The notes: generated from the letters alone by a model not told the origin. Counted from the stretch's first letter, positions 15,074 to 40,785 are shown. The stretch: 40,785 bases of DNA from an uncultured Clostridia bacterium (GCA_938044725.1 CALIOW010000091.1:1-40785); one strand, 5' to 3'. Made by a program: numbers and translations.

Positions 15074-15075
15074 AG

Positions 15076-17661: not shown

Positions 17662-17683
17662 AATAGAGAAAGAAGGTATAGAT

Positions 17684-23100: not shown

Positions 23101-23971
23101 CGCTGTACCACAGGCTAACGGTAAGGTTAAAGGTATGGGCGTTATTTTGGAAACAAACGGCGGCAATGACGGTACGGCTGTTTTGGTTGACGCAACGGTT
23201 AATTATTCCGACAATACTTCGGAGGATATAAAGGTATATCTCCAGAGATCGCATGGCTTTAACACGGCTAAAATGGCAGCACATTCAAAAGATTTCGGCA
23301 GACTTGTTATAAATTCCGACAATACGGTTGCAAATCACGAGAAATGGCCGAATGTAGATAGGGTAAGCTTCTATTCTTCAAATATCGAATTTAATTTGGA
23401 TAAAACCGTTTCTTCGATAACCTTTAAGCCTTGCACTTCTGACGATTATCACATCGTTGCAATGACGGAATACGTTTATACAAATACAGAACTTTGGGAT
23501 TTTGTTAATGCTATGTCGGCAAATGACATAAGCGGAATTACAAAGGAAAATGCAGATGAAACAATCAAGGGCTGTGAAGCCGTTATCGAGCTTTATAACC
23601 GCGGATTTACTGCTGATATCCAAGAAGAAGACTGCAGCAGCTACACGCAGATGTTAAACTATGCAAAAGCTCTTAAGGCAGATGAAGCTTCTGTTGATAT
23701 CAATGTTACAATCGCAGAAGACGGCAATAATATGAAAGCAACGGCAGCAATGTCAAACACAACGGCAAATGCACAGGATTACGTTATAGTAATTGCGGCA
23801 TATAAAGCTAATAAGCTTGTCGGTCTTAATATTTCCGCACAGGGAACATTGCAATCAGGCGACATAAACAAAACAGACAGCGTATCGCTTGAAAAAATAG
23901 AGGGTGCGCAGTACAAAGCTTTCGTTTGGGAAAGCATGTCAAGCTTAAAGCCTATCTATAAGGCAAACTAA
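20135..23971 (+). CDS. Secreted 1278-aa protein built from four copies of an unassigned module plus a C-terminal beta-sandwich-like domain
   Basis: AGGAG RBS. Sec signal MKKRIFSILVSLLMITSLVGIANA. Four collinear modules start near 20225, 21137, 22007 and 22834. No catalytic motif was recognised. Confidence 0.85.
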   Translation: MKKRIFSILVSLLMITSLVGIANAETQAADGQIHHIDLTNYFNSDSIASEGDTLGASWNGGNASKYGFPASLFTAADGYVTFGGRNAVKTDPNGKIETSNMTVSDNQADNFKFYIPQAGLAGGVNDSVYQAANEEKTYTLNDASKINKIKFALHMFSDANITATVNYSDGTSDSYAQWFQGSARNADSNKVVWSIYNNLRCFGWKWTTSSIKPNADGTAEKATDGGTDYYWGIRGYEIPVDVSKAPVSFTLKATNPISLFALAECEITNAELTAQLALVRAYEGGAYTAEQIKNIVLANSYADILVQRGTITEENVSDIRALLERANKQKALAEIHYINITDTFDSSTIGSFGETPNADTWFRGMTDKLSDNSFNGMQAGAFGNSDFVSFEEWANRAKTGNTILAYMPMSTRTATALDSHYIPVSNGEFTVPLDSVNTQAVNFVLNTGDAQTFKAEVKYSDNTTDNYSFGIQSYGTVSSQATTGYDNLVGLKGLWWRFAKIDKDGKLADTDTTNRSVGITMFGVKTDKTKTPVSITFTNTHGSMPVFMYAVTQVPVYSTEMLENIETAKGLNAKEGLLTADEITAVTEAKAYADVLLSAGIGSEADYAFLTALLEKANKQKALSEVSHFDISKDYNADTIGGVGETAGDTWFDGFTGFNGNFNGFNKTAFGTKEYFDATVYELNSDGNKQQTGTISVYIPNVGRSAGEVDSAALWKDKTLTVDLNDVPTQTIRYLANNTETTVKATVYYKDGTTEEKLIGGTNFASTYYSTKFVDGAYLWLGGFVHKENNGVLTAKSGTVGIMVYNVAVDAAKIADKVVFSVASDTKPVYFYSVSQVPVSYETMKAALDAGLSGVYTDEDEATANKLANYKAVLTDAGAIASTAYPMVENYIKQANSQKNTYVDLTSYLNDDIMVKLGDSYAGITLGRTTELFDGEKIPTDGMITMLPPSDPTQMSDETGRTYKLSGAYNGKGNDSVLIKKEDNSGVTIAVPQANGKVKGMGVILETNGGNDGTAVLVDATVNYSDNTSEDIKVYLQRSHGFNTAKMAAHSKDFGRLVINSDNTVANHEKWPNVDRVSFYSSNIEFNLDKTVSSITFKPCTSDDYHIVAMTEYVYTNTELWDFVNAMSANDISGITKENADETIKGCEAVIELYNRGFTADIQEEDCSSYTQMLNYAKALKADEASVDINVTIAEDGNNMKATAAMSNTTANAQDYVIVIAAYKANKLVGLNISAQGTLQSGDINKTDSVSLEKIEGAQYKAFVWESMSSLKPIYKAN

Positions 23972-24084: not shown

Positions 24085-27000
24085 ATGAAAAAAACACTAT
24101 CCTTACTGCTTGCATTTATGCTTATTGCGATACTTCCCGTAAGCGCACAGAGTGTATCATTAAGCGACAGACTTAATTACAACGCAATTTTTGATACTGA
24201 TGTTGTGCCGAGAGCAACGGAGTTTCCGGCGGTTATTTATTCCGCAAGCGCATTTTCCGATACTCTTACGCTCGGAAATCTCGATTATTCCGTTACGGAG
24301 GGACATTCCGGAAAAGAAAACGACAGTATAAAATTAACCGATACGTATAATTTTGCTTTGGAAGAAGCGCCGTACAAAAAAATCGGATTTATTGCGTATG
24401 CGCTTAATTCCGATACGCTTACAAACGTAAAGATAGTTTATAAAAGCGGAGATACGGAAACCTTCCCGATTACCGTAAAGACAGCTTCCAAACAAGCGGA
24501 TCTATCCGTTTCGGCAGGTATGGGGCTTAAAAAAGGCGGTACGGGTATGCGCCCCAAGGCAGAGGTAGGCGAAACGGAGCTTTTCATAAATGCGTATGAA
24601 ATGTCGCCGTCCAAAACAACAAGCATTTCGGCTGTTGAATTTCCCGCTTCCGACTGTGTTTTATTCGCGGTATCGGCTCTTAAGTATACGCAGGAGGAGC
24701 TTGACAATCTTTCAGACCGTGTTATAGAAGAAACCTTAGCGCAGTATAAAGACAAAACCTTAACGGATATAACGGACGCAGATACGGATTCTTTGGAATC
24801 TCTCTATAATGCGCTTCTCACCGCACAGGAAAACGGCAGCGCGATTGCAACCGATGAAGTTATAGAAAAAATCAAAAACTTAAAAGACGGCTATCCGCTT
24901 TATTCAAAGAAAAAAGAAATATGCACATATTTTAACGATACATATGCGGTGCGTGATTACAGAACGCTTGCTGTTTCCGATCTTTCAGACAGCGATATAA
25001 CGGTTATAGATACGCTTATTTCAAAATATACCGAAGCGCAAAGCTTTGATAATGAACGCTATGCGGAAATACTTTCATATTTTAATATGACGGACGATTA
25101 TACATGGAATTTATCCGATAAAGAAACGCTTACAAACTTAAAAACAGCGTATGAGCGCAAAAAATATGAGGAAGAATTAACCTCAAAAATCAATTCGGCT
25201 TATGCGCCTTATAAGGATAAAACCGTTTCCGACCTTGCTGAGTCCGATATTGCAAAATTGCAGGAGCTTGTTGCGCTTTATGAAGAGGCAAAGCGTGAGA
25301 ATGTGCCTTACAATGCGGACGACAGAGCGAAGATAGAAAAACTTCTCAATACATATTCGGCATATTTGAATTCCGAAAATGACGAATGTTACGACCTTAA
25401 AAATTACTATACGGGCAGTATTGTAGGTAATGCGGGCGATACCTCAAAAGCATGGGGCTTTCCCGACGGCTCGGGCTATGTCGGCTATTCGTCGGAAACA
25501 TTTGAAAGCTTTTTGACAGATGGATATTTTTTGGCAAAAAATCAGTTTAACATTATGAAAGAAATTGAGTCCGTACCGAAATTGACAGAGCAAAATCTTG
25601 CAAAAGCCATTAAATTTAAAATGAGCGATGAAAGAACAGCTTCGGGCAAAAACGCAATACTTTTCGGTTCAAAGGAAGATAAAGAACACGGACTTATTAC
25701 GAGCGTGAATATCTCCGCGCCGAAGCGTGTTTCGTCGCAGATTATGTTTTTATATCCTGCAGCAAGGTCTAATTACAGCTCGGATATTGTTATTAATTTT
25801 ACCGACGGCACAACCATGACGCAGAAATACGGCATTGGCTGGTGTAATTGGGGGTCGCATACGGGTATGTATCAAAGCACGAAATATAGCAGAAATAATG
25901 ATGTTATATCTGAAGCTGCAACGGATAACCCGTCGCTTTTGTGCCGAGGTCTTGTTCTCGATATTCCCAAGGGCAAGATTATAGAAAGCATAGACGTTGC
26001 GCAGACGCAAGGAGCGCTTTTGGCAATAACTGAGGTTCCGCTTTTAAATGCTGATTTTACCGAGCTTGTAAAAGAACAGTGGGCAAAGGTTGAAGCAATT
26101 GATACGGCAAATGTAACGAATGACCAACTTGCCGATGTAAAAACCATGGTTCTATATATGGCGGAATGTGAAAAAAGAGGTCTTGATATAGCTGATTTCG
26201 TATCGGATACCGCTAAAATGAACGAATTTAAGCAAATGATTCTTACGGTATCGCACACCGTTTACAGACAATCAAAGAATGAAGTCCGTGCCGACTTTGA
26301 ATTTTCCGTTCCCGTAAATGCAAGCGATATAAATAAAAACATAACGGTTTTGAAAAACGGTATGGAAACAGCGGATTATTCCGTATCGCTTTCAAACGGC
26401 GGAAAATCACTTTCGCTTATATTAGCAGAAAGCAAAAACGGCGGAAATGAATATAAAATAACCTTATCCGGCAATCTTTCGCTGGAGCTTTTCCCGAAAA
26501 TCAAACTCGGAAGTGATTACACGGTTTCATATGACGTTCCCGATTATCTTACATATTCGTATAACGGCGCGGAATTTACAATAAAAAACAATTCAAAAGA
26601 AGAAGCGAGCGGCTTTGTCGGTGTTTCCTGCTTAAGCGCGGACAATAAAACAATGTATTATTCCGCATTGAAGGAATATACGGTTTCGGCAGGAGTTGAA
26701 GTGAAAATTTCCTGCGATACCTCGAATTATTCACAGCTTGCGCCAAATACAAAAACTGTTTTGTGGGACGAAAACATGAAAACGGTTTCAAACGGAAGCG
26801 AAATATCGGCTTGCACCGATGAGCCTGTTTTGACCGCAAATTACAGCGAGCCTGCGTTTTCCATGAAGGACAACAGCATAAAATTAAACGGTATAACTCC
26901 GTCGGCAAGTGAAAATAAAGCTGTAAGCCTTAAAATTACGGACGAAAGCGGAAATGTAATTTTCACAGGAAGTCAGCTTACGGCAAAATCGGGATATTTC

Positions 27001-28392
27001 AATTTTGAATTTATTTTGCCCGATTATATGTATCAAAACTCAATGACGCTTACGTTTACTTTGGGCGGAGATGATTTTGAAACGCCGCAAACGCTTTCAA
27101 ATACGATCTACTACTATGCGCCCGGCGACAGAAGCAATTTCATAGCCGAGCTTAAAGCTTCGAGTGAATCCGAAATAACGGCGAAAATCCCCGACGTCAA
27201 GAAAAATCTTGCAATTGCGATTGCACCTGCGGACGTGATTTCCGATGCGGACTATGCGAAAATGATATTTAATAACAAGGCTTTGCTTTTGGAAAATGAC
27301 CCTGCAAAAACACAGGGAAACCTCAAAAAGCTTGCGATTATAACGGCATTTTGGGGCGATAACGCAAATATACTTATGAACGGAAGCGAGCTTTTATATA
27401 ATGATTTAATGAATTTCAGCTCGATTGATTCGGACGGCGTAACGCTTTATTCGATATTAAAGAGCGGTATATCCGAAGAAGGCATAAAGCATTTCCAAGA
27501 TGAAGTTTTCGGCAAAAAATACGCAAACGAAAACGAACTTATGAAAAAAATAACGGAGGAAATATTCCTGTCGGCGATTAACTATCCCTCTACGGGCGGT
27601 ACGGGCTATATAGGAACGCTTCTGACGGCAAAAAATGCTTCCAAGGTAGAAATCACCATAACAAAATATCTGAACGCGCCTACATATGATTTTAATAACA
27701 AAATAGCGGCGCAAAGAGGAAACTTCAAGACGCTTTTGGAAGTTGAGAAATTTATTTCTTCATACAAAAAGCCCGAAAACGGTTCGTCCGGCGGCAGTTC
27801 GGGAGGCGGAGGCGGTTCATCGTTCTCATCGTCGATAACGGAAGAACCTGCACCTGCACCAACTCCCGCACCGAGCCTTACGTTTAACGATGTTCCGACA
27901 TCGCATTGGGCATATGCAAGCATTATTTCACTTTATAATAAGGGAATAATTTCGGGCAAGGGAGATAAAACTTTCGCACCCGACGATACGATAACGAGAG
28001 GCGAGCTTGTAAAAATGCTTTGCAAGGCTTACGGCTTTACGGCAAGCAGAAACGACGTATTCTCCGATACGGCGGATAAATGGTACAACGAATTTGCGTG
28101 TGCCGCATATGAAAACGGAATTATAACGGGAATAAGCGAAAGCGAATTTGGCGGCGATGCGAACGTTACAAGACAAGACATCTGCACAATGCTTTACAGA
28201 ACGGTTAATGCCGAGGTTTCGGGCGAGCTTGAGTTTGCAGATTCCAACAGCGTTTCCGACTATGCGAAATCGGCAGTGCTTTATATGGCGCAAAACGGCA
28301 TAATAAACGGATTTTCCGATAATACGTTCAGAGCGGCGGAATATTGCACAAGAGCGCAGGCGGCAAAGATAATAGATATGTTTTTGAAATAA
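24085..28392 (+). CDS. Secreted 1435-aa SLH-anchored protein with two copies of the same unassigned module, Ig-like domains, a Gly/Ser-Pro/Ala linker and three C-terminal SLH domains
   Basis: GGAGG RBS. Signal MKKTLSLLLAFMLIAILPVSA. Modules start near 24151 and 25381. The linker is SSGGSSGGGGGSS...EEPAPAPTPAPS. SLH repeats: FNDVPTSHWAYASIISLYNKGIISG, FSDTADKWYNEFACAAYENGIITG and FADSNSVSDYAKSAVLYMAQNGIINGF. Confidence 0.85.
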   Translation: MKKTLSLLLAFMLIAILPVSAQSVSLSDRLNYNAIFDTDVVPRATEFPAVIYSASAFSDTLTLGNLDYSVTEGHSGKENDSIKLTDTYNFALEEAPYKKIGFIAYALNSDTLTNVKIVYKSGDTETFPITVKTASKQADLSVSAGMGLKKGGTGMRPKAEVGETELFINAYEMSPSKTTSISAVEFPASDCVLFAVSALKYTQEELDNLSDRVIEETLAQYKDKTLTDITDADTDSLESLYNALLTAQENGSAIATDEVIEKIKNLKDGYPLYSKKKEICTYFNDTYAVRDYRTLAVSDLSDSDITVIDTLISKYTEAQSFDNERYAEILSYFNMTDDYTWNLSDKETLTNLKTAYERKKYEEELTSKINSAYAPYKDKTVSDLAESDIAKLQELVALYEEAKRENVPYNADDRAKIEKLLNTYSAYLNSENDECYDLKNYYTGSIVGNAGDTSKAWGFPDGSGYVGYSSETFESFLTDGYFLAKNQFNIMKEIESVPKLTEQNLAKAIKFKMSDERTASGKNAILFGSKEDKEHGLITSVNISAPKRVSSQIMFLYPAARSNYSSDIVINFTDGTTMTQKYGIGWCNWGSHTGMYQSTKYSRNNDVISEAATDNPSLLCRGLVLDIPKGKIIESIDVAQTQGALLAITEVPLLNADFTELVKEQWAKVEAIDTANVTNDQLADVKTMVLYMAECEKRGLDIADFVSDTAKMNEFKQMILTVSHTVYRQSKNEVRADFEFSVPVNASDINKNITVLKNGMETADYSVSLSNGGKSLSLILAESKNGGNEYKITLSGNLSLELFPKIKLGSDYTVSYDVPDYLTYSYNGAEFTIKNNSKEEASGFVGVSCLSADNKTMYYSALKEYTVSAGVEVKISCDTSNYSQLAPNTKTVLWDENMKTVSNGSEISACTDEPVLTANYSEPAFSMKDNSIKLNGITPSASENKAVSLKITDESGNVIFTGSQLTAKSGYFNFEFILPDYMYQNSMTLTFTLGGDDFETPQTLSNTIYYYAPGDRSNFIAELKASSESEITAKIPDVKKNLAIAIAPADVISDADYAKMIFNNKALLLENDPAKTQGNLKKLAIITAFWGDNANILMNGSELLYNDLMNFSSIDSDGVTLYSILKSGISEEGIKHFQDEVFGKKYANENELMKKITEEIFLSAINYPSTGGTGYIGTLLTAKNASKVEITITKYLNAPTYDFNNKIAAQRGNFKTLLEVEKFISSYKKPENGSSGGSSGGGGGSSFSSSITEEPAPAPTPAPSLTFNDVPTSHWAYASIISLYNKGIISGKGDKTFAPDDTITRGELVKMLCKAYGFTASRNDVFSDTADKWYNEFACAAYENGIITGISESEFGGDANVTRQDICTMLYRTVNAEVSGELEFADSNSVSDYAKSAVLYMAQNGIINGFSDNTFRAAEYCTRAQAAKIIDMFLK

Positions 28393-28416: not shown

Positions 28417-31284
28417 ATGAAAAAGATACTAACAATACTTATTTCGGCAGTTATGCTTGTTTCTTTGATTCCGCAGGCTTTTGCGTATTCCGACACAACG
28501 GATAAGCCGATTGAGATTATATCGGGTCTCGGACTTATGAACGGCTATGACGACGGTACGTTTCTTCCCGATAACACAATGTCCCGTGCGGAATTTGCAC
28601 AGGTTATAGCAAACATTTACGAATCGGGCGACGATGCCGAAGCGGCTTGGAAAGAGCAGTTTTTCAAGGACGAGAACGAAGAAACCTCGCTTGTAACGAA
28701 ATTTTCGGAGGGCGAAAAAGAGATTTTCTCCGACGTTCCGTCATCACATTGGGCATTTAACGTTATAAATACCGTTTACGGTCTCGGACTTATGACCGGC
28801 GTTTCCGAAACGGAATTCGACCCCGAAAGTACGATTACCGTTGACCAGGCATATAAGGTTATGATTTGCCTGCTCGGTTACCGTCCCAAGGCTATCGTAA
28901 AAGGCGGCTATCCTGCCGGCTACAGAAGAACAGCGGTTGAGCTCGGGCTTTCAAGCGGTATAAAAAGCACAGACAAAATTACAAGAGGCGACGTTGCAAG
29001 AATGCTTTATAACGCGCTTGACGAGGAAATTTTGCAGATAACCTCAATAGGCAATACGATCGGCTACGAAACAATTCCCGGCGATACGTTTTCCAAAAAA
29101 ATCCTCGGCTACGATACTGCCGAGGGCAGAATGACCGATAACGGACTTACCGACCTTATGGGGGCGTCCTCACAGTATAAGGAAACCGTAACGGTGAATG
29201 ACGTTTCTGTTCGCCTTACCGATGATACGCAGTATATACGTAATTTTATCGGACGTGACGTAAAGATATTTTATAAGGAAAATGAAAAAGTAAACTATGC
29301 GGTATACGCATATCTTACCGACAGAGATGAAGTAACTTCATTTGAAATTTCTGATTTTTCGTCCTACAAAAACAATACTCTGACATATACGCAGGGCAAA
29401 TCAAAGACACAAAAGACAGTTAAGCTTGAAAACGGAGCAGGAATGATTTTAAACGGCACAGGCGTAGGCTCATATGATGAAAATACGTTTAAAAGCATAA
29501 ACAAAGGAACGGTAACGGTTATTAAACCTTTTGGAAAAAGCGCTTCAGACCTTATTCTTTTGGAATCATATACAAGCTTTTATGTTGATTTAAAGGATAA
29601 CAACGATAAAAAGCTTTACAGTATTTCCACACTTGTGGATAATAAATGTATCGATTTATCCAATGAAGAAAAAAGCATTTATATATACGATGCAAACGGC
29701 GATTTAACAACCTTTGACGCCATAACCACGGATATGGTTTTGAGCGTTTCCGAAAGCGAAAAAGTGTTAAAGCTTTATATCGGAAACGGCGCAAAAGCTG
29801 ACGCAACCGTTACGGAAATAAGCGAATCGGGCGGAAATACATATATAACGTGCGGAAACGATAAATATGTGCTTTCAAAGGATTATATAGAGCTTAAGGG
29901 AACGAATGAAATAAAAGCCGGAACAAAATATACGCTTTATATTGATAAATTCGGCGAAATTATAAATGCAAAACCGGCAAAAAAGGAAAACATAACTGCC
30001 GCAATTATAATAGGCGCAAAAACCTTCGGTACATTTGGTGAGGATTCAAAGATAAAATATTTCAACGAAGACAGCGAAATGAAAGAAAGCTATCTTGCGG
30101 ACAGCGTAAAAATTAAAAACGAAAACGGCATAGAAACCACATATAAAGAAGCAAGCGACGCGATCAGCGTCATAAGCTCATACAGCGGTGTGGCACGTAT
30201 CGGACTTAATGAAGAAAAGGAAGTAAACTACGTTGAGCTTGCAGGTATTCAGACTACATTCGGCAATGAGGAAAACCGACTTGTAAGAATAAAGCTTTCG
30301 GACACTGTTTCACCGACGCAAAAGGTAACTTCCTATTATAAGATTAATCAGGGCTTCGGCGGTAAAGCTGTTGTAGGAAGCAATACAAAGGTATTCAAGT
30401 ATAACCCCGAAACGATGGACGACGACTCTTTTTCGATTAATACCGTGGGAATATTCGCAAACGATAACAGATATGACGTTTATGCTTATACAACAACGGC
30501 AGATTCAAAGCTTGCGGAATATATAGTGTATGAAAGTGCGGCAAAAAATTTGCTCACACCGTCAAACAAGGATTTTGCACTTGTAAAGGATATTTATAAA
30601 GGCGTTACGGCAAAGGGCGACAGCATGAACATACTTGAAATATATTTTAACGGAAACGATATGACAAAGGTTTACTGTGAGGATTCCGTACTCGAAGACG
30701 TAAGAGATATATGGGACAGAGATAAAATTGACGATAATTCACCCAAGTATAAGGTCGAAAAAGGAGATATTATCCGTTATACGACAAATTCCGATGAAAC
30801 CTTAAAGAATATAGTTCTTATATTTGATGAAAACGCCGTAAATCCCCATTCGGGCGGACAGGGAAATCTGGCAGGCTCAATCGGTTATTTTGATTCAAGC
30901 GATTATACCCATTCAAATCCGTATGCGCAGACTGTTTCGGGCTTCAATTCAAATGCGCTTTACTGGACGGCAGAGGAGCTCAGAAATATGGTTTGCTATC
31001 CCTTGATTCAGCGTTCGGGACAGCTTACCGTTACCACTATGGACTTAACTAAGCTTCCGTATTCGGAGGACGAAATCGGAACGAAATACGCAACGGAAAC
31101 ATATACCGCAAACAGCAATGTTGTACTTTTCAGAATTGACGGCGATACAATCACACGTGAAACAATAAGCCCCTCTGAAATAAAAACGTACGAAAAAGCG
31201 GGGAGCGATTGCGATAGACTGTTCTATTCAACACGTGTCGGACAAACGCAGATGACATTTGCAATAAGAGGATATACAAAATAG
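28417..31284 (+). CDS. Secreted 955-aa protein with N-terminal SLH domains and an uncharacterised beta-rich C-terminal region
   Basis: AGGAG RBS. Signal MKKILTILISAVMLVSLIPQAFA. SLH repeats: ISGLGLMNGYDDGTFLPDNTMSRAEFAQVIANIY, FSDVPSSHWAFNVINTVYGLGLMTG and GYRRTAVELGLSSG...TRGDVARMLYNAL. The remainder has no motif I recognise. Confidence 0.8.
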   Translation: MKKILTILISAVMLVSLIPQAFAYSDTTDKPIEIISGLGLMNGYDDGTFLPDNTMSRAEFAQVIANIYESGDDAEAAWKEQFFKDENEETSLVTKFSEGEKEIFSDVPSSHWAFNVINTVYGLGLMTGVSETEFDPESTITVDQAYKVMICLLGYRPKAIVKGGYPAGYRRTAVELGLSSGIKSTDKITRGDVARMLYNALDEEILQITSIGNTIGYETIPGDTFSKKILGYDTAEGRMTDNGLTDLMGASSQYKETVTVNDVSVRLTDDTQYIRNFIGRDVKIFYKENEKVNYAVYAYLTDRDEVTSFEISDFSSYKNNTLTYTQGKSKTQKTVKLENGAGMILNGTGVGSYDENTFKSINKGTVTVIKPFGKSASDLILLESYTSFYVDLKDNNDKKLYSISTLVDNKCIDLSNEEKSIYIYDANGDLTTFDAITTDMVLSVSESEKVLKLYIGNGAKADATVTEISESGGNTYITCGNDKYVLSKDYIELKGTNEIKAGTKYTLYIDKFGEIINAKPAKKENITAAIIIGAKTFGTFGEDSKIKYFNEDSEMKESYLADSVKIKNENGIETTYKEASDAISVISSYSGVARIGLNEEKEVNYVELAGIQTTFGNEENRLVRIKLSDTVSPTQKVTSYYKINQGFGGKAVVGSNTKVFKYNPETMDDDSFSINTVGIFANDNRYDVYAYTTTADSKLAEYIVYESAAKNLLTPSNKDFALVKDIYKGVTAKGDSMNILEIYFNGNDMTKVYCEDSVLEDVRDIWDRDKIDDNSPKYKVEKGDIIRYTTNSDETLKNIVLIFDENAVNPHSGGQGNLAGSIGYFDSSDYTHSNPYAQTVSGFNSNALYWTAEELRNMVCYPLIQRSGQLTVTTMDLTKLPYSEDEIGTKYATETYTANSNVVLFRIDGDTITRETISPSEIKTYEKAGSDCDRLFYSTRVGQTQMTFAIRGYTK

Positions 31285-31300
31285 CACAGGAGGGAACGAT

Positions 31301-34300
31301 ATGAAAAAATTATTATTAAGCATCATATGCTTTACGCTGTGTCTGACTTTTCTTGCGCTTCCCGTATGCGCGCAAAGAGAAGATATAGGCGCTGTTCCGT
31401 CCAATTACCAAATGGTGCTTATGGAAAATTCTATGATAGGCATATATTCGGGCGAGCTTGAAAAGCTTAATTGCTCACCTATAGCTGCGGAAGGAGCTTT
31501 GCTTCTTCCCGCACGCTGGTTTTTCCAAAAGCAGGGCTATGAGGTTTCATACAGTGACGGAGTGTGTACCTTTGCAAAAGACGGAAAATCTGTCGGCGCA
31601 ACGCAAGGCAGCGCGGAAATAACCGTTGACGGTACGGCACATACTTTAAAAGCGCCCGTACAAAACATAGGCGGAAATCTCTATATTCCAAGTGATATAT
31701 GTGATGTTTTGGGACTTAATTATAAGCACGGCGCAAACGGACTTTTCGTAATTTATACAGGCGAATACAAAACAGCGTCTGACAGAACCTTAATAAAGCT
31801 TCAGGGCGTTTATATGTCGCCCGAAGGTGCGGTTACAAGCGAGGGAACACCCAATAAACCTATTAATAATCTTCCCGCCGCTGTTGAAACGGCAAAGAAT
31901 AATATGCTGATGTTCGGCTCGGAATATCCCGTCTATATATTTGTAAAGGGAGGCGAATATAAAGTAACTGCTACAACAACGCTGGACAAAAATGTGTTCG
32001 GCAAAGCGGAATATAAAGGACTTATTATAGTCGGCTATGACGGGGAAGCCGTATTTACGGGAGCAACCGAGATTAACGCTGAGGATTTTAAACCTGTAAC
32101 GGATGCAGATACACTTTCACGTCTGCCGAAAGCCGGAAGAGGAAAGGTTGCGTATTTGGATTTATCAACGCAGGGAATTTCGGGGCTTTCCAAGTCCGAC
32201 GAATCCTATCCGTATGTTTATGTAAACGATAAACAGCAGTTAATGTCCCGTTGGCCGAACGACGATTTTACAAAAGTAAGCAGTGTTCCCGTAAACGGTG
32301 AATTTTGCTACGAGGAAGCAAATCCCTCTCGCTGGACAAGAGCGAATGACCTTAGAATAAACGGTTATTTTGTAGCTGATTATTTCTATAATTCAACACG
32401 TACGGGCGGAGTTGACGCAAAATCAAAAAGAATAAAAACATTGGACGTAAGCTTCCAGTCTCATAGGGCAGGCTCACGCTGGTACGGCTGTAATCTGCTT
32501 GAAGAAATCGATGTGCCGGGCGAATGGTATGTTGACAGAGATACGAATATGCTCTATTTCTATCCGCCTTATACGCTAAAAGGCGCAAAGGTTGAGGTTT
32601 GTACATTTCATAGCGGAAATTTTTTAAATGCAACGGGTGTGAAAAATCTTACAGTTGACGGTATAACCGTTACAAAGCTCGGTAAAAACGCAATTGTCGG
32701 CAACGATATGGAAAACGTAACCGTAAAAAACTGTAATTTCACATTTTTGCAGGGTACGTATAACATTGCGGGTGAACGCTGCAAAAACATAACGGTTGAC
32801 GGAAATTACAGCTATAACTGCGGCGGCGGATTTGTTTCGGTAAGAACGGGCGATATGGCGGCTATGGAATACGGCAATTTCAAATTCACAAACAATAGAA
32901 TTGTAGCAGGCGGCTTTGTACCAACAAATATTAGCGGTGCGTTTAATGCAGGTTACAACAATAACGACTGGGTCGGCACAATGGGGGCGGATATTTCCAA
33001 TAATATTATACAGGACTGCAACGGCTCATATGCTGTTTCATATGTCGGACTTGACAATAAGGTGCACCATAATGAAATTATAAACCAGGCTAAAAACATC
33101 CACGACGGCGGTGCGATATATTTCGGTAAATCCACCTCGTATAACGGCACGGAAATTTCGTTTAACTACATTCATCACCTAAACCGTGAGAACTTCTACT
33201 GCGGACTTTATAACGATGACGCTTACGCATGGGCAAACTGGCATCACAACGTTGTTTATAACGCAAACCGTTCTACAATTATCGGTTTGGGCTTCGGAAT
33301 GAAATATCAGTACAATTTGGCTATAGATACGGTAAATCCCGCAACCGTAGGCTCACGTATGACATGGACGAAAGATGAGAAGCAGCAGGGAGAGGTTGTA
33401 AGAGCGGCGGCAAACGAAAAATGGGTGGCAAAATGGCCGTGGCTGAAAACAGCGGCAACGAGAGATCCGTTTTTGGCTCCGTGGGATTCATATGTATTCG
33501 GAAATATCGGAATAGGCGCACCTGCAACCGCAGGAACGGTTGACGAGCTTTCCAAATACGGCGCAAAGACAATCGAAAGAAACGGAAAAGAATATAACAT
33601 AGAGGGTAAAAACAGTACAAAAGAAGGAAATCCGTCATACGCTTATGACGAAAATCTCTTTGAAGACCCGAAAACTCAAAATTGGAATTTAAAACCCGAA
33701 AGCGATATAGCAAAGGAATGGCCCGAATTTTTGGATATAAAAATGGAAGAAATCGGACTTTCCGAAGGATATGACAATTTAAAGCATATAGACGATACAT
33801 TTAAGTTAAGATATCCGTATAACGGACAGACAAACGTTCAGACAAAAGAAGTTCGTTTTTCATGGGAGGCTTTGGAATGTGCAACGGAATACAAGCTTGT
33901 TGTTGCGACGGACCCCGAACTCCAAAACGTCGTTTTTGAGAAAACCTTACGTGAAAATTCCGACAACAATTCTTATACCACGGATTCACTTTTAAACGAT
34001 ACCGTTTATTATTGGAAGGTATATGCAATAGGTCTTGCAAGACAGGATATGTTTGAACAGGGAAGCGTCGGCGCACCGTATGCATTCAAAACGGCACGTG
34101 AAAACGAGCTTGATAAAGACAGCGTAAAGGTTGCTTATGAAGCGCTTATCGCACTTGATAAAGAAATCAAAGAAAGCGATTGCGAGTATACCGATGAATT
34201 TATGAAGAACCTTGAAGAACTTGTTACACGTGCAACAGATTTGTATAAAAACTCGAAGAGCCAGAGCGAGCTTGACGCACTTGAAGAAGAAATATACAAC

Positions 34301-35563
34301 TTTATAAAACGTTCACCTTTCTTCGTCGAAGTTAATTTCTCCGTTCCCGATTTTCTCACAAATCCCAACGCTGAGTGGGATGCGGGAGGCGGAACGGTTA
34401 CATACGACGGAAATACCATGACATATTCATCGCCGCAGGGGATGAGAACGGACGGTATAGTGAAAACAGGAACGTATAACGATATTCTTTGCTTCCAGGC
34501 GAAATTCGATAAGCTTATAGACGGCGGCGGATATCAGGGTATCGACTACAAAATGGAGGAAAACACAGCAAACAGCTATCTGTTTATTTTGAAGGAAAAT
34601 GTATTTGAATTCCAAAAGGAGGGTAAATTCTTCCTTGAGCTTCCGTCCTTTAAGGTAAAGGCGGGCGAATGGATAGACTGCATGATGGGCGCTGTAAATA
34701 CCCCCGGCGGCGTATTGCAGTTTGTAAGCCTTGACGGAAACGTTGTTTTTGCTGCGCTCGACCAAACGCCTACGCAGGTTAAGACGGGCGGACGTTTCAG
34801 AATACGTAAGAACGGCGAAAACGATATTCATTTGCGCCCAATGGAGAAAATTCCCGAAAAGCATGCGCTTATAGAGGATATTTACAATTCGTTTTCCAAT
34901 CCGTATGATGAAACTCATCTTGCCGTACTCTTAACGGGTGCGTTTAATGCGATAGATATGGATAATTCAAACTTTGCTTCTCTTGATAAGAAAAAGCTTT
35001 CCGAAAAGCTTTATCCGCTTCTTAAAGAGAACGGAATAAAGATAAAAGGCACAGACTATTCGGAATATAAAAATGTCGTTTCCGATATGGCAATTTTGGA
35101 ATACTATAATCAAGGAAAGGCAGACGCACTTTTCAAAAACAATGTTGTACTTCGTCATAACGATATAACGCAGTTTGAGAAAATAGACCAAAACGGTGTA
35201 AATTTGTATGCTTTTTCACAGGAGAAATTTAAGGACACCGACTACAACAAGGTAAATCAAGCTACGATGAACGGCGACTGCAAGACCTTTGACGAGTTAA
35301 GACTCAGGTATGCGAAGAATATATTTGCACACAGCATAAACGCTTGCTCAAACGGCTGGGGTGCGGACGCAACATATATGTTTGATATTATAACAAAGGC
35401 GAACTGCGATTATTTGGGAATAAATATTGACGATTACTTCGCACTATCCGACGTGGATAAAGTTTCAATTCATAATATCCTCGGACGAAGCGGCGTAAGC
35501 TTGGACAGAACGCTTGATGAAATTGTCGAAGAAATCCATACGTCAATAAAAGAACTGAAATAA
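31301..35563 (+). CDS. Secreted 1420-aa beta-helix protein with an N-terminal copper-amine-oxidase-N-like domain, an FN3-like domain and a ConA/LamG-like domain
   Basis: Signal MKKLLLSIICFTLCLTFLALPVCA. Cu_amine_oxidN1-like stretch (ALLLPARWFFQKQGYEV...GGNLYIPSDICDVLGL). Beta-helix signatures PGEWYVDRDTNMLYFYPP, HDGGAIYFGKS...FNYIHHL and LYNDDAYAWANWHHNVV. FN3-like RFSWEALECATEYKLVVATD...YYWKVYAIG. Confidence 0.85.
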   Translation: MKKLLLSIICFTLCLTFLALPVCAQREDIGAVPSNYQMVLMENSMIGIYSGELEKLNCSPIAAEGALLLPARWFFQKQGYEVSYSDGVCTFAKDGKSVGATQGSAEITVDGTAHTLKAPVQNIGGNLYIPSDICDVLGLNYKHGANGLFVIYTGEYKTASDRTLIKLQGVYMSPEGAVTSEGTPNKPINNLPAAVETAKNNMLMFGSEYPVYIFVKGGEYKVTATTTLDKNVFGKAEYKGLIIVGYDGEAVFTGATEINAEDFKPVTDADTLSRLPKAGRGKVAYLDLSTQGISGLSKSDESYPYVYVNDKQQLMSRWPNDDFTKVSSVPVNGEFCYEEANPSRWTRANDLRINGYFVADYFYNSTRTGGVDAKSKRIKTLDVSFQSHRAGSRWYGCNLLEEIDVPGEWYVDRDTNMLYFYPPYTLKGAKVEVCTFHSGNFLNATGVKNLTVDGITVTKLGKNAIVGNDMENVTVKNCNFTFLQGTYNIAGERCKNITVDGNYSYNCGGGFVSVRTGDMAAMEYGNFKFTNNRIVAGGFVPTNISGAFNAGYNNNDWVGTMGADISNNIIQDCNGSYAVSYVGLDNKVHHNEIINQAKNIHDGGAIYFGKSTSYNGTEISFNYIHHLNRENFYCGLYNDDAYAWANWHHNVVYNANRSTIIGLGFGMKYQYNLAIDTVNPATVGSRMTWTKDEKQQGEVVRAAANEKWVAKWPWLKTAATRDPFLAPWDSYVFGNIGIGAPATAGTVDELSKYGAKTIERNGKEYNIEGKNSTKEGNPSYAYDENLFEDPKTQNWNLKPESDIAKEWPEFLDIKMEEIGLSEGYDNLKHIDDTFKLRYPYNGQTNVQTKEVRFSWEALECATEYKLVVATDPELQNVVFEKTLRENSDNNSYTTDSLLNDTVYYWKVYAIGLARQDMFEQGSVGAPYAFKTARENELDKDSVKVAYEALIALDKEIKESDCEYTDEFMKNLEELVTRATDLYKNSKSQSELDALEEEIYNFIKRSPFFVEVNFSVPDFLTNPNAEWDAGGGTVTYDGNTMTYSSPQGMRTDGIVKTGTYNDILCFQAKFDKLIDGGGYQGIDYKMEENTANSYLFILKENVFEFQKEGKFFLELPSFKVKAGEWIDCMMGAVNTPGGVLQFVSLDGNVVFAALDQTPTQVKTGGRFRIRKNGENDIHLRPMEKIPEKHALIEDIYNSFSNPYDETHLAVLLTGAFNAIDMDNSNFASLDKKKLSEKLYPLLKENGIKIKGTDYSEYKNVVSDMAILEYYNQGKADALFKNNVVLRHNDITQFEKIDQNGVNLYAFSQEKFKDTDYNKVNQATMNGDCKTFDELRLRYAKNIFAHSINACSNGWGADATYMFDIITKANCDYLGINIDDYFALSDVDKVSIHNILGRSGVSLDRTLDEIVEEIHTSIKELK

Positions 35564-35585
35564 ATAATAAATAAGGAGAAGTAAA

Positions 35586-38500
35586 ATGAGTAAGACTATA
35601 AGGCTTGCGGCAGTTTTATTGGCTGCTGTTATGATTTTGGGAGGCGGATTTAACTGCTTTGCACAGTCTGAAACGCTTAATATTTATGTTTCGGCAAACG
35701 GAAACGATGAAACGGGCGATGGGACACAGTCGTCTCCGTTTGCAACGCTCGGCAAAGCAAGGGATTATATCAGAACGCTTTCAAAGGATTCCGGTATTAC
35801 GGTAAATATCGGAGCAGGCGAATATTATGTTAATTCGTCCGTTTCGTTTTCCTCGCAGGACAGCGGCAATGAAAATTGCATTGTTACATATAAAGCCGAT
35901 GACGGCGCAGTTTTCAAAAATACAAAGAAGATAAATACAGACGAATTTAAGAAAGTTACAAGCCCCGAAATCTTAAAAAGGCTGAAAAAAGAAGTAAGGG
36001 GAGAGGCATATTATTTAGACCTCGGTTCATATTGTATCCCAACAGTAAAAACAGCTTTTATTTTGGACGGAGAAAAATTTGAATTTTCAAGATATCCCAA
36101 GGACAGCCTTTTAAAAGCTGCAAACGATGCGTCGGATAAAACCTTCAGCGTTTCCGACAGCAGAGTAAACGAATGGGCAAAGTCGGAAGATATGTTTGTA
36201 AAGGGTTCGCTTTCTTCAACGTATTCATGGGAAAAAGCAGACGTTTCCGATATTTCGGGCGGCTCTGTAACAGTATCTCGAAATGTCATAAACGATGCGG
36301 AAATATACTTTAATAACGTGCTTGAAGAAATGAGCGCTGTGGGCGAATATGTTATCGATACAAAAAACAAGGTAATGTATTGCATACTTCCCGAAGACTA
36401 TAAAGGAAAAACCGCTGAAATTACTGCAGGTTCTCTGAATTCTCCTTTTATAAATTTAAACGGAGCCGAGTATATTAAATTTGACGGTCTTAATTTTTAC
36501 GGATTAAGCAATAATGCGGTTTATATGACAAACTGCAAAAACATCAGCGTAGAAAACTGCTCGTTTAATTTTATTAATGCAGACTATGCGATAAGAATTG
36601 TAACGGGCAAAAATATAAACGTATACTCAAACGGCGCTTATAAATGTTCGGGAGGTTTTGTGAGGTTTTCGGGCGGAAACAGAGTAACGCTTGAAAGCGG
36701 AAATATAAATATAGAGAAAAACGTAATATTAAACTGCGCAACCGACCTTAATTCCTGTATTATAAGTTCGGGAGTAAATTCACCTACCGATACGGTTGAC
36801 GCAATCGGAAATACGGTAAAAAATAATATAATAGGCGACAGCTCTCCCACAAATGCAATTTCCGCCGTGGGCATATATAACAAAGTATCAAACAACGAAA
36901 TATATAATGTTTCGCGCCAAATCGATGACGGCGGAGCAATATATTACGGAAGAAGCAACACGAAATACGGAAACGATATATCGTATAACTATATTCATCA
37001 TTTGAATAAGGCACATATGTTTTCCGCACTTTATGCCGACGACGGATACGGCGGAATCAATATGCACCATAACGTTATGTACAGTATGTCTCACCCCATA
37101 CATATCGGAATGGGCATGAACAATAAGTTTGATAACAATATGTATATAGATGTGGACAAAGGAATACGCGCACAGACAAGAATGACATGGGGAGACGCAT
37201 ACGCCAACTTCGGAGATTTGTATCAGGAGACATACAATCTGATGGAAAAAACGATTATGAAGGAGCTTTATGCCGCCGCCTTTCCCGATTTAAAGGTTTC
37301 GGTAACAAGAAAACCGTTCTTTGCACCGTATAATTCGCAGATAACAGGCAACGTTTCTTTCGGAAACGTAAATGCGCTTTATGAAGTACCCACACATTTG
37401 TATTATTCGGACGAGACGGCACAAATTCTTACCATATCGGACGAGGCAAATGTTGCGGGTATAGAAAATGCACTTGCGACAAATGCTAATAACAGAACAT
37501 ATGTAAACGAGCTTAAAGCGTACGGTGCAAAGGTAACGGCGTCGGACGGAACAGATTTAAATGCAACTGCGGACGGAAATCCACGTTTTGATTATGATAG
37601 CGCATATTTTAAAAATGCGTCTGCACAAGATTTTACACTTACAAGCGCATTTTCTTCTTCGGTATCAACTGTAAATGAAATAAATATGTCTGAAATAGGA
37701 AATATAACGGCAAGCGAAAACAAGCTTTTAACACCTGCCGAAAAAATAAATATTTATGCAGTGCAAAACGGCAAAAAGATTGATATAACGTACGGAACCA
37801 ATCCGTCCGTGTCGCAGTACAGAATACTTGTGTCTGCGGACAGCGGTTTTTCAAACACGGTTTTCGATAAGACGGTATATGAGGATAACATGACGTTTGC
37901 GTTAGAAACCGATGAACTTCCGTACGGTACATATTATATAAAAGCAATAGGTACGGGACTTTCAAAACAAAGCCAATTTACGGTGCAGTCTGACGTGATA
38001 ACATTCACTCATGAGGATAAAACGGAAAAAGCCTATAAAAATGCGCTTTCACTTTTGGAAGATGAAATCAAAAAGGCACAGAGCGGAGATTATGTATACA
38101 GCGATGAAAGCATAATAACGGAGCTGGAAGCAAAGAAAGCATATCTTACCGAAAATGCGCAGAGCATATCAAAATCGGATGAAGAAACGGCAATATACGA
38201 CCTTCTTATAAGGGCACAGGCGGAAAGAAATACGCTAAAACCCGAAATCAATAAATGTACGGCGGACACCTCCGACAGCAACGTTTATGTTGAGGCAAGC
38301 GGTTTTCATGCAAATTCGCTTGTAACCGTTCTTGTTACAAATCCGAATACGGATAAAAATACCTTTGCAAACGGAAATAAGGATATTGTAAGATATACAA
38401 ATGTTTTGAGTGCAGACCATAACGGCTGTGTGTCATTTGATTTTGATACAAAAATAAACGATATAGACTATTTGGGAACATACACAGTTTATCTTGCCGA

Positions 38501-38888
38501 TGCAAACGGAAGAATAATTTCTCAAACATATGATTACGGTACGGTTGAAACCTCTGCGGTAACATTCTATAAGGATTCCGCCGAAATTTCGGCAGAAGAG
38601 CTCTCGGCGCACAAGGGAGAAACGCTTACGGCAAAATTAAACGTGAATAACCGTATAAGCATAGATACGAATGCTTATGCTTCAATAGGCTCGTATAAAT
38701 CGGGAAAGCTTATAGATGTTACTTTTGATAAGGTAACGCTTCTTAAAAACAGCGTAAACGAAGTAACAATAAGCTTCAAAGTGCCTGATGATTTTGACGA
38801 AAATACGACCGCCGAATTTATGCTTTTGGACGGAAAAACAGTTTTAAAACCGCTTTCGCTAAAGCGTATAATAAAAGAAATAGAGTAG
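35586..38888 (+). CDS. Secreted 1100-aa beta-helix protein (paralogue of CDS 31301) with FN3-like and Ig-like C-terminal domains
   Basis: Signal MSKTIRLAAVLLAAVMILGGGFNCFA. DUF1565-like start NGNDETGDGTQSSPFATLGKARDYI. Signatures VGEYVIDTKNKVMYCILP, DDGGAIYYGRSNTKYGNDISYNYIHHL and LYADDGYGGINMHHNVM. It carries the C-terminal domain shared with CDS 1..4122 and CDS 20135. Confidence 0.85.
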   Translation: MSKTIRLAAVLLAAVMILGGGFNCFAQSETLNIYVSANGNDETGDGTQSSPFATLGKARDYIRTLSKDSGITVNIGAGEYYVNSSVSFSSQDSGNENCIVTYKADDGAVFKNTKKINTDEFKKVTSPEILKRLKKEVRGEAYYLDLGSYCIPTVKTAFILDGEKFEFSRYPKDSLLKAANDASDKTFSVSDSRVNEWAKSEDMFVKGSLSSTYSWEKADVSDISGGSVTVSRNVINDAEIYFNNVLEEMSAVGEYVIDTKNKVMYCILPEDYKGKTAEITAGSLNSPFINLNGAEYIKFDGLNFYGLSNNAVYMTNCKNISVENCSFNFINADYAIRIVTGKNINVYSNGAYKCSGGFVRFSGGNRVTLESGNINIEKNVILNCATDLNSCIISSGVNSPTDTVDAIGNTVKNNIIGDSSPTNAISAVGIYNKVSNNEIYNVSRQIDDGGAIYYGRSNTKYGNDISYNYIHHLNKAHMFSALYADDGYGGINMHHNVMYSMSHPIHIGMGMNNKFDNNMYIDVDKGIRAQTRMTWGDAYANFGDLYQETYNLMEKTIMKELYAAAFPDLKVSVTRKPFFAPYNSQITGNVSFGNVNALYEVPTHLYYSDETAQILTISDEANVAGIENALATNANNRTYVNELKAYGAKVTASDGTDLNATADGNPRFDYDSAYFKNASAQDFTLTSAFSSSVSTVNEINMSEIGNITASENKLLTPAEKINIYAVQNGKKIDITYGTNPSVSQYRILVSADSGFSNTVFDKTVYEDNMTFALETDELPYGTYYIKAIGTGLSKQSQFTVQSDVITFTHEDKTEKAYKNALSLLEDEIKKAQSGDYVYSDESIITELEAKKAYLTENAQSISKSDEETAIYDLLIRAQAERNTLKPEINKCTADTSDSNVYVEASGFHANSLVTVLVTNPNTDKNTFANGNKDIVRYTNVLSADHNGCVSFDFDTKINDIDYLGTYTVYLADANGRIISQTYDYGTVETSAVTFYKDSAEISAEELSAHKGETLTAKLNVNNRISIDTNAYASIGSYKSGKLIDVTFDKVTLLKNSVNEVTISFKVPDDFDENTTAEFMLLDGKTVLKPLSLKRIIKEIE

Positions 38889-38900
38889 GAGATTAAAAAA

Positions 38901-39464
38901 ATGTTTAAGAAGATAGGGGCAGTGTCCCAAAGAAAGATTTATGTCGGATTCAATGAAAAAAATGAAAAATGCTTTCCGATTGAGGTAGACGGCTATAAGG
39001 TTTTGGACGGCTTTAAGACAGAAGCGCTTTCAAATTTTTGCGTAACCGAAAGCGGAAATTACATAGGAGGGTATTTTGTTGACGTATGCTCCGACAATAT
39101 GCCGTTTCCCGCTGTGGGATTTTTCTTAAAAGCAAACGGAAAAATACTTTTAAACGGCGAAGCGCTTACGGAAAACAAAAGAGTGAAAATTACACAAAGT
39201 GATGAAGCGATAATTACGGGCGAGGATTATAACTGCTGTTTTTACCCAATAATCGAGGATAAAAACGATTACTTTTTAGAATATGATAAAGACGAAAATT
39301 CAGTCGGTATCATAAGCGTACATAACGGAAGCTGTGAAAACGATACAAGGGTAATTTTAAAATTCGGCTGTGCTTTTTCGCAAGGCTTTGAATTTATTAA
39401 GGACAATGCCGAGGTGAAATTTTACCCCAAATGTTCAATAAAAAGAATAATAGGAGATGAATAA
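38901..39464 (+). CDS. Hypothetical 187-aa cytoplasmic Cys-rich protein
   Basis: AGGAG RBS 7 nt upstream of the ATG. No signal peptide or TM segment. Nine Cys residues. Its stop lies 1 nt before the next start. No family recognised. Confidence 0.6.
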   Translation: MFKKIGAVSQRKIYVGFNEKNEKCFPIEVDGYKVLDGFKTEALSNFCVTESGNYIGGYFVDVCSDNMPFPAVGFFLKANGKILLNGEALTENKRVKITQSDEAIITGEDYNCCFYPIIEDKNDYFLEYDKDENSVGIISVHNGSCENDTRVILKFGCAFSQGFEFIKDNAEVKFYPKCSIKRIIGDE

Positions 39465-39465
39465 C

Positions 39466-40785
39466 ATGAATTTGGAAATTTCAGTATCAAAAAATGACGG
39501 TCTTGCCGATGTTAAAACGCTTGCGCAGGCTATAAAAATTGCAAACGAAAAACGAAACGACTATGATGAAATTGTTATTAATATTGCAGAGGGCGAGTAT
39601 TTTCAAAATGAAACCTTGGAGCTTACCGAAAAAGAATTAAAAAGCGGCAGAGCAAAGATAATATTCAAAGGAAACGGCGATAAAAAAACAATAATTTCAG
39701 GCGGTATAGAGCTTTCTCCGTTTGATTTCAAAATCGCGGAAAATGACCGTATCAGACCTGATATGAAAGGAAAAATTTTATCGCTCGACTTGAAAAAATA
39801 CGGAATAACCGAAGTCGGTAAGCCTTTCACAAGAGATTCGTGGTATGATATGATTCCGTCGCAGTGTGAGCTTTTTGTTGATGACTGCGAGGCGCAAATT
39901 ACATCATTTCCGAAAAACAGAAACCGCATTAAGATTAATAAAGAAGATATTTTAAGGACTGTACAGCCTTTAGAGCCGTACCCTGCGCCGTATGACCCCA
40001 AGCCCGATATATCGGATAAATGCGCTGTTATAAAATATAATTTTTTTGAAGCCGATAAGTGGAGTAAGGCGCACGACGCATATCTTTTCGGATTTCCCAA
40101 CGCAGGCTTTTTCTCGTTCAGTGTTCCCGTGGATATAGATACAAAAGAAAAGACCATTTCTTTAAAAGAACGTGTCGGGGTAGGAAGTAATTCGTATTTT
40201 AATACATACTGTATACGTAACCTGCTTGAAGAACTGACGGAAAAAGGGGAATATTATATTGATTCCGATGAGTTAATTCTTTATTATTACCCGAAAACAA
40301 AGCTTACAAAGGACTCCAAAATCCGCCTGTCAAGCTTGAAAGAACCGCTTATTGCCTGCGAAAATATTTTTAATGTAAAATTTGAAAATATAGTTTTTGA
40401 GTGCACAAGAGGTATGGGCGTTTACATGGAGGACACAAAGCATGTTGAATTTTCAGACTGTACATTCAGAAATATAGGACTTGTTGCCGTTTCGTTTGGG
40501 CTCGGCTTTGAAACAACAATAAATATCCCCAAGGAAACAATGCACGTAAAGGACTATACCGATTTGCCTTTCAAAAAACGTGCAATAGGAAATATAAAAA
40601 CGCAAATGCATAACGACCCGATGTCGCAGAGAAACGGCGGCTATGACAATCTTATCCGCGACTGCGAAATTTATAATATCGGCTGCGGAGGAATAATTCT
40701 CGACGGCGGCGACCGCATGAATTTATTAAGAGGGAACAACAGAATCGTGGGATGCGATATTCATGATTTCAACCGTCTTGAAGAA
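39466..40785 (+). CDS. Beta-helix paralogue without a signal peptide (cytoplasmic), 3' end cut by the window edge; absent from the supplied ORF track
   Basis: GGAG at 39453-39456 precedes the ATG at 39466. My hand translation gives 440 codons with no stop through nt 40785. MNLEISVSKNDGLADVKTLAQAIKIANE...INIAEGEYF parallels the mature N-termini of CDS 35586 and CDS 31301. KGEYYIDSDELILYYYP matches their GEWY.D...LY..P motif. Beta-helix rungs are visible (FENIVFECTRGMGVYM, FSDCTFRNIGLVAV, IRDCEIYNIGCGGIIL). Confidence 0.8.
   Translation, partial: MNLEISVSKNDGLADVKTLAQAIKIANEKRNDYDEIVINIAEGEYFQNETLELTEKELKSGRAKIIFKGNGDKKTIISGGIELSPFDFKIAENDRIRPDMKGKILSLDLKKYGITEVGKPFTRDSWYDMIPSQCELFVDDCEAQITSFPKNRNRIKINKEDILRTVQPLEPYPAPYDPKPDISDKCAVIKYNFFEADKWSKAHDAYLFGFPNAGFFSFSVPVDIDTKEKTISLKERVGVGSNSYFNTYCIRNLLEELTEKGEYYIDSDELILYYYPKTKLTKDSKIRLSSLKEPLIACENIFNVKFENIVFECTRGMGVYMEDTKHVEFSDCTFRNIGLVAVSFGLGFETTINIPKETMHVKDYTDLPFKKRAIGNIKTQMHNDPMSQRNGGYDNLIRDCEIYNIGCGGIILDGGDRMNLLRGNNRIVGCDIHDFNRLEE

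Follow-up and report, generated by a model that had tools for sequence, protein, structure and literature searches.

The window analysed here, one whole contig of 40,785 bp from an uncultured Clostridia bacterium (CALIOW010000091.1, assembly GCA_938044725.1), carries four large genes on the plus strand, which we refer to as A (1..4122; 5'-truncated and open from base 1, with 1373 amino acids (aa) seen), B (31301..35563; 1420 aa), C (35586..38888; 1100 aa) and D (39466..>40785; 3'-truncated, with 440 aa seen of a protein that has 678–679 aa in orthologs). Based on sequence comparisons and a structure model, their products are likely glycoside hydrolases (GH) that belong to an uncharacterised, divergent clade akin to CAZy family GH141. 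They are divergent relatives of a known family and not a wholly new kind of enzyme. A preliminary description of the window had proposed these four open reading frames (ORFs), and all were found as given. It had also stated that the proteins belong to no family that could be named. This view had to be abandoned in light of the GH141 homology reported below and of the solved structure 9rx2; GH141 had itself been on the list of families suggested there for checking.

The four proteins are paralogous, and their similarity is far above chance. In an all-against-all BLASTP comparison, B and C were most similar to each other (E = 2e-91, 28.6% identity over ~900 aa), followed by the pairs C–D (1e-13), B–D (1e-10), A–C (2e-9), A–B (3e-7) and A–D (5e-7). 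Chance similarity of motifs among A–D was ruled out by these E-values. Each of the collinear shared motifs quoted previously was located at the expected place, and the notion of a family of paralogous beta-helix proteins was upheld by BLASTP, by profile searches and by the model of C.

Two solved structures were retrieved by sequence searches. One is the founding GH141 enzyme, Bacteroides thetaiotaomicron BT_1002 (PDB 5MQP), whose substrate is chain A of rhamnogalacturonan-II (RG-II). The other, 9rx2, is annotated as a "Parallel beta-helix repeat protein" of 717 aa and is the closest solved structure, spanning the catalytic region including its C-terminal segment. A phmmer search of the PDB with C retrieved 9rx2 (7.6e-15), to which C also aligned by BLASTP (1e-21, 25% identity), and a PDB sequence search with B retrieved 9rx2 at 1.4e-4 and BT_1002 at 0.27. 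Direct BLASTP comparison with BT_1002 gave matches for C (4.6e-8, confined to the N-terminal 92 aa), D (1.6e-6 over 328 aa) and B (3e-5). A profile built from 46 sequences of the family matched 9rx2 end to end (1e-120), BT_1002 at 8.9e-53, the GH120 enzyme XylC at 6.6e-17 and lyases at 2e-8 or weaker. Because this profile includes bridging sequences close to BT_1002, the PDB search was repeated with an eight-sequence profile comprising the B/C clade only, which again retrieved 9rx2 (2.3e-32) and BT_1002 (1e-16), with GH120 as the next family (1e-4). When the B/C clade was compared by hhalign with BT_1002-like sequences that had been aligned separately, the probability was 100% and E was 8.5e-50 over 606 columns at 14% identity. 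The sequences also form a continuum, in which BT_1002 is linked to the homolog P0051 (1e-30), P0051 to 9rx2 (2e-78) and 9rx2 to C (1e-21).

A structure prediction, which the preliminary description had suggested as a check, agreed with these results. The AlphaFold2 model of C aa 28–720 had a predicted local distance difference test score (pLDDT) of 91 and a predicted template modelling score of 0.91, with beta strands at residues 100–240 and regular short strands through residues 250–500. In a Foldseek search of a PDB set that did not include 9rx2, the top four matches of this model were chains of 5mqp (E = 3.9e-20, template modelling (TM) scores 0.57/0.66), with GH120 and GH110 distantly behind. 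The fold of C is thus a parallel beta-helix of the right-handed kind, as in BT_1002, and the Pfam Beta_helix model matched D weakly and homologs clearly. The window proteins also share with BT_1002 an N-terminal cap motif (YVS..G.D...GT...PfaTL). In GH141, the helix is interrupted after its first ~100 residues by a beta-sandwich insertion (residues 109–295 of BT_1002; Pfam model GH141_M, PF21231). The region of the window proteins that may correspond to it aligned with BT_1002 in hhalign and hmmsearch, and GH141_M matched below threshold in B and D. Among close homologs of C, this model scored at or above threshold in P0012, P0056 and, marginally, the C-type ortholog P0008 (27.1 bits), and a scan of C itself gave no match.

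The first of the three motif regions, N.LEE.D..GE(W/Y)..D....LY.YP, marks the point where the GH141 insertion domain ends on its C-terminal side and is common to B (32516..32569), C (36339..36392, GEYV), D (40243..40293, GEYY), 9rx2 and BT_1002 (in the comparison with BT_1002, N..E.LD..GEWY.D....YYYP). The second, DGGAIY...NYIHH, lies at 33101..33181 in B and 36924..37004 in C, and a degenerate version (NDMGVLY and NYIHD) occurs in A at 376..402 and 439..459. The third, Y.DD...HHN, was found in A (544..588), B (33206..33250) and C (37029..37073). When A was aligned to the family hidden Markov model with hmmalign, its NDMGVLY, NYIHD and IYSDDG fell into the catalytic columns.

Three independent alignments placed the DGGAIY aspartate and the first aspartate of Y.DD on residues D528 and D569 of the BT_1002 PDB chain, which are 41 residues apart and stand at a constant offset of 5 from D523 and D564 of the protein. 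C Asp448 (36927..36929) thus corresponds to D523 and C Asp485 (37038..37040) to D564. In BT_1002, D523 (the proposed nucleophile) and D564 (the proposed acid/base) are essential according to mutagenesis (PMC10154630; PMC12786026). Both columns are also filled in B (Asp602, 33104..33106; Asp639, 33215..33217), in A (Asp127, 379..381; Asp185, 553..555) and in the orthologs of D. Between the two aspartates lies the NYIH histidine (C His471, 36996..36998; B His625, 33173..33175; A His152, 454..456), which is found family-wide, as NYVHH in 9rx2 and NCVHS in BT_1002. The two aspartates, on neighbouring rungs of the predicted helix, most likely form the catalytic pair. The earlier suggestion that the conserved acidic residues mark a catalytic centre was therefore borne out by their alignment with the two essential aspartates of BT_1002, while the suggested invariance of the Asp/His clusters failed for most of the histidines, namely for the second one of NYIHH and for HHN. 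The latter two are clade-specific and variable even within the B/C clade; across the wider family, only the first Asp, the NYIH histidine and the Asp of Y.D are conserved, the first Asp being the sole invariant acidic column among the 46 sequences.

The half of D that is missing from the window could be read on longer contigs that carry its orthologs (L002, with 100% identity across the 440 aa in common; L001, 89%). These orthologs contain YDNGACY and IYLD and hence both Asp columns. NYIHH and HHN were not found in these full-length orthologs. Membership of D had initially been based on the GEWY-type motif and the beta-helix rungs; the motif and the homology were confirmed and the orthologs add the two aspartates, whereas the histidine motifs of B and C do not extend to D.

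Several observations weigh against the reading of A–D as GH141-related hydrolases. Identity to BT_1002 is only 14–16%, and the direct pairwise matches cover parts of the proteins only. The GH141_M scores of B (17.5 bits) and D (16.5 bits) remained below the cut-off of 27, and the matches were limited to the final 35 positions of the model, where the GEWY motif lies. NCBIfam gave no match for A, B, C, D or a 187-aa ORF located between C and D. No family member with activity data is closer than ~25% identity. In A, the loop between the two aspartates is 21 residues longer, and the catalytic half of D lies beyond the end of the window. Furthermore, the GH38, GH43 and GH5-like genes of the locus, together with galK and galT downstream in relatives, do not indicate one glycan. 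The preliminary description had considered assignment to an established CAZy family of known specificity as an outcome that would speak against it: homology to an established family, GH141, was found, and a specificity was not.

Some of these points would also fit the view that the clade is a separate, unnamed CAZy family within the structural clan of GH141, with the same fold and catalytic pair, a C-terminal domain of its own and a specificity beyond those described for GH141. We regard this as a serious possibility, albeit on balance not a probable one. The low identity to BT_1002 and the sub-threshold GH141_M scores of the window proteins favour it, as do the clade-specific NYIHH and HHN signatures, a ~150-aa segment C-terminal to the helix (F.D....DF.L...S...I....IG) that is common to the window proteins and 9rx2 and absent from BT_1002, and a cassette with S-layer homology (SLH) proteins that was seen in Clostridia loci only. 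However, sequence space is continuous along the chain from BT_1002 through P0051 and 9rx2 to C, and the close C homologs P0012, P0056 and P0008 pass the GH141_M model. In addition, GH141 as defined in CAZy already spans very different branches and CUPP groups (PMC12786026), and 9rx2, which has R.TDGG in place of the Y.DDG of the window proteins, bears the xRxDx signature reported for a fucoidan-active GH141 branch (PMC12786026). In its DG.GIY, NYVHH and second Asp, 9rx2 resembles the window proteins; it differs from the multimodular A–C in being single-domain and lipoprotein-like. A full-text search for the PDB code 9rx2 recovered no paper, and two candidate papers did not contain the code.

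As many beta-helix enzymes are polysaccharide lyases (PL) acting by beta-elimination (PL1, PL3, PL6 and PL9), this activity was also considered for A–D and appears very improbable. The family profile matched PL6 alginate lyases, chondroitinase B, pectate lyases and a rhamnogalacturonan lyase weakly (E = 2e-8 to 1e-3), and many homologs carry precomputed Pel9A-like Pfam matches. However, these profile matches were confined to the N-terminal cap or generic rungs and lay 30–45 orders of magnitude below the GH141 match, and the Pel9A-like match comprised 33 residues at a sub-threshold 20 bits. PL1, PL6 and PL9 lyases use a calcium-binding acidic cluster and a Lys or Arg base, whereas the conserved residues of the window proteins are a hydrolase-type Asp pair. 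Membership in PL1, PL3, PL6 or PL9 was rejected, as similarity to these families was seen at the level of cap and rungs (2e-8 or weaker) and no family-level match was found. It is equally far-fetched that A–D are non-catalytic surface beta-helix proteins, such as adhesins or S-layer-associated proteins with structural conserved residues, a reading which the association with SLH proteins, the large immunoglobulin (Ig)-like decorations and the adhesin PfbA among the Foldseek matches (E = 1.9e-4) might suggest, and which we rejected because all four paralogs and hundreds of relatives retain the two residues that are essential in BT_1002, D has no signal peptide, and the locus holds an ATP-binding cassette (ABC) sugar importer, GH38 and GH43.

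The GH120 beta-xylosidase XylC (PDB 3VST) was the second-best fold and profile match to the window proteins, sharing the N-terminal cap and some rungs, but its profile match was far weaker than that of BT_1002 (6.6e-17 vs 8.9e-53), its TM score was 0.38 and it showed no match to the GEWY insertion. GH141 is polyspecific and includes an alpha-L-fucosidase acting on RG-II, an endo-xylanase and an endo-fucanase. Given this breadth, the four window proteins may or may not share the single complex substrate that had been proposed for them. The endo-xylanase, Xyn141E, is reportedly from Acetivibrio thermocellus. The endo-fucanases Wf141_1, _2 and _4 stem from Wenyingzhuangia fucanilytica (PMC12786026). 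Compared by description only, these enzymes agree with the window proteins in that fold and Asp pair support endo action on polymers, and by analogy the multimodular B and C, if extracellular, could plausibly work in the same manner. The R.D signature of the Wf141 fucanase branch is absent from the window proteins, and the locus contained no sulfatase, as would be expected for sulfated fucans, and no dockerin match, as in cellulosomes. Unlike BT_1002, which belongs to a Bacteroidetes Sus-type polysaccharide-utilisation locus, the window proteins carry large accessory modules and are encoded in a Gram-positive locus of the SLH/ABC type.

The four copies bear different accessory modules, as had been proposed. 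In A, aa 1 to ~380 represent the C-terminal half of a GH141-like catalytic beta-helix, as indicated by BLASTP to B and C and by the family model, and are followed by Ig-like Big_5 domains (Pfam) and unassigned beta-rich modules. A module of ~300 aa in this accessory part is tandemly duplicated (aa 660–995 vs 961–1292; 1978..3876), with copies 50–67% identical; it consists of a Big_5 domain, of which an older copy lies at aa 389–505, and a beta-rich domain that matched neither PDB nor Pfam entries. B comprises a signal peptide and an N-terminal Cu_amine_oxidN1 domain (aa 55–133), the GH141-like catalytic region (aa ~166–800), an Ig/FN3-like domain and a long, unassigned C-terminal tail of ~500 aa. 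The B-type orthologs, with 1402–1444 aa, contain Cu_amine_oxidN1 as well. C has a signal peptide and a GH141-like catalytic region from aa 28 to ~700 (phmmer, AlphaFold2, Foldseek and hhalign), followed by an FN3/Ig-like domain, a helical linker and C-terminal Ig-like domains. D consists of nothing but the catalytic unit, with weak Pfam matches to Beta_helix, Pectinesterase and GH141_M and no signal peptide, and is therefore probably cytoplasmic. For the accessory regions of A and B, the PDB sequence search gave no match and Pfam returned only Big_5, with CopC-like and Ig_Rha78A_N-like similarities below threshold.

Judging by homology searches, A is an outlier within the family. With its catalytic part as query, only two distant homologs were obtained among 5.8 billion proteins and no full-length ortholog was recovered. 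A look-up of the neighbouring GH38 gene returned only a 6-kb contig, so that the N-terminus and the GEWY region of A were not retrieved. The last codons of A, together with a terminator-like hairpin (GAGGCGG...CCGCCTC followed by an A/T-rich run) at 4109..4180, are duplicated at 4306..4379, ~200 nucleotides (nt) downstream within the intergenic region between A and GH38.

The most plausible course of catalysis for GH141-related hydrolases would involve the Asp pair, with the equivalents of BT_1002 D523 acting as nucleophile and those of D564 as acid/base, and the conserved NYIH histidine located nearby. As GH141 endo-fucanases transglycosylate (PMC12786026), the mechanism is probably a retaining double displacement; a 2023 review stated that the mechanism of GH141 had not been experimentally demonstrated (PMC10154630). 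B, C and probably A would be secreted and may hydrolyse a glycan outside the cell, at its surface and next to two SLH-anchored proteins, G2 and G3. The released oligosaccharides could then be imported by the adjacent ABC system and their degradation completed in the cytoplasm by D and the signal-less GH38, GH43 and GH5-like proteins, presumably under the control of the two-component system of the locus.

The annotated genes mark the window as a polysaccharide-utilisation locus of the Gram-positive type, from an uncultured, Oscillospiraceae-like member of the gut Clostridia, and all hallmarks of such loci, i.e. co-located carbohydrate-active enzymes (CAZymes), a sugar ABC importer with its solute-binding lipoprotein, and a regulator, are present. 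According to Pfam, it encodes GH38 (4470..7100), a GH5/35-like protein and GH43, a histidine kinase and an AraC-type response regulator (both on the minus strand, 13337..16467), a pair of ABC permeases (16726..18568) and a solute-binding lipoprotein with DUF3502 and a lipobox-like N-terminus (18604..20109). Few other known CAZymes occur in the locus. The lipoprotein gene is followed by those for the secreted repeat protein G1 (20135..23971; 1278 aa, no Pfam match), for G2 (24085..28392, plus strand; 1435 aa, three C-terminal SLH domains) and for G3 (28417..31284, plus strand; 955 aa, N-terminal SLH), the latter two immediately upstream of B. Signal peptides were predicted for B, C, G1–G3 and the solute-binding protein; D, GH38 and the GH5-like protein have none. 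No recognisable domain besides SLH was found in G2 and G3. The AlphaFold2 model of G3, based on a six-sequence alignment, reached a pLDDT of 52 and was too poor for fold assignment. Between C and D lies the 187-aa ORF (38901..39464, plus strand), which has no signal peptide and no family match and is separated by 12 nt from C and by 1 nt from D. It is conserved at 85–99% in close relatives (L001/L002, 13319..13882) and was found in none of the 80 more distant genome loci. The intergenic gaps from G3 to D measure 1–22 nt. A scan for promoters and terminators showed no enrichment and no terminator-like site between the genes from G2 to D, which may be co-transcribed.

Other features of the window were observed aside from this system. 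G1 contains ~4 internal repeats of ~290 aa (23–34% identical), with a weakly similar stretch at aa 437–726 of G2 (E = 0.009), and no counterpart of G1 was detected in the 80 related genome loci. Two short, adjacent ORFs at 8382..8966 and 9014..9532 match a glycyl radical enzyme only in its middle (PFL-like positions 397–587) and in its C-terminal glycine-radical domain. They appear to be remnants of a gene that was disrupted, and a further contig (L003) carries the first fragment in identical form. Two adjacent calcineurin-like metallophosphoesterases (11326..13315) adjoin the kinase/regulator pair, and a metallophosphoesterase occupies the same spot in a distant locus from the Hadza gut (L088, 704..1819) that also bears GH141-like genes. 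This co-location hints at a functional link and perhaps at a phosphorylated glycan.

A scan of genome contigs with C alone revealed no close relative; the pattern scan relied on a narrower alignment (A2), as the first one (A1) was too diverse. Close relatives, 89–98% identical and with the same gene order, were present in metagenome assemblies and in the metagenome-assembled genome (MAG) GCA_964320585.1, where a sigma/anti-sigma pair, galK and galT follow downstream. At 30–70% identity, the order G2(SLH)–G3(SLH)–B-type–C-type was kept in uncultured Oscillospiraceae and Clostridia and in Candidatus Ornithomonoglobus (L004, L005, L008, L010, L012, L084 and L085). In more distant Clostridia, two permeases and a solute-binding protein were followed by two GH141-like genes, first a short and then a long one, and by genes for an SLH and a G3-like protein. 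The transporter and regulator genes seen in the window also lie around GH141-like genes in other loci of Clostridia. A G3-like gene was located within 10 kb of a GH141-like gene in 23 of the 80 genome loci, and at least two adjacent GH141-like copies occurred in 32 of 85 loci. One GH141-like homolog was fused to a GH29 fucosidase, but neither this fusion nor the Leloir genes close by in relatives is decisive for the substrate. Elsewhere, GH141-like genes adjoin a 3-keto-disaccharide-hydrolase-like protein with Cu_amine_oxidN1 and an AP_endonuc_2 (xylose-isomerase-like TIM barrel) protein (L086, 13548..15293; L088, 12542..13378).

A phmmer search with the catalytic region of C yielded 5,559 clusters (50% identity) at E ≤ 1e-3, 3,097 at 1e-10 and 515 at 1e-30, and members of the wider family occur as far afield as Paenibacillus, Planctomycetota, Verrucomicrobiota, Lentisphaerota, Kiritimatiellia and Armatimonadota. 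In uncultured gut Clostridia sampled from humans (Hadza, Nepal), goats and chickens, 4–8 copies are present, and 6–8 in single MAGs. To our knowledge, published counts do not exceed two GH141 genes per genome. Searches of the literature on GH141 together with SLH proteins, or on new beta-helix GH families, retrieved nothing on the clade of the window proteins.

The finding overturns no concept, and distant GH141-like enzymes in such loci will not surprise specialists. It provides four large "hypothetical" proteins with a family and a candidate active site (Asp448 and Asp485 of C and their equivalents) and extends the GH141-type fold into a large unannotated clade, represented by the 3,097 clusters found at E ≤ 1e-10. 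This clade has expanded in uncultured gut Clostridia and is linked to SLH proteins that are themselves uncharacterised. Their repeated co-occurrence, in loci with few other known CAZymes, defines a locus type worth functional glycomics. More tentatively, and with considerable doubt, the B/C-type pair together with G2 and G3 may constitute an apparatus, not described before, with which uncultured gut Clostridia degrade glycans at the cell surface, and which has a specificity new to the GH141 clan. If so, a separate CAZy family or subfamily could be warranted, and the expansions of the clade to 6–8 copies in single genomes would mark specialists on a dietary or host glycan.

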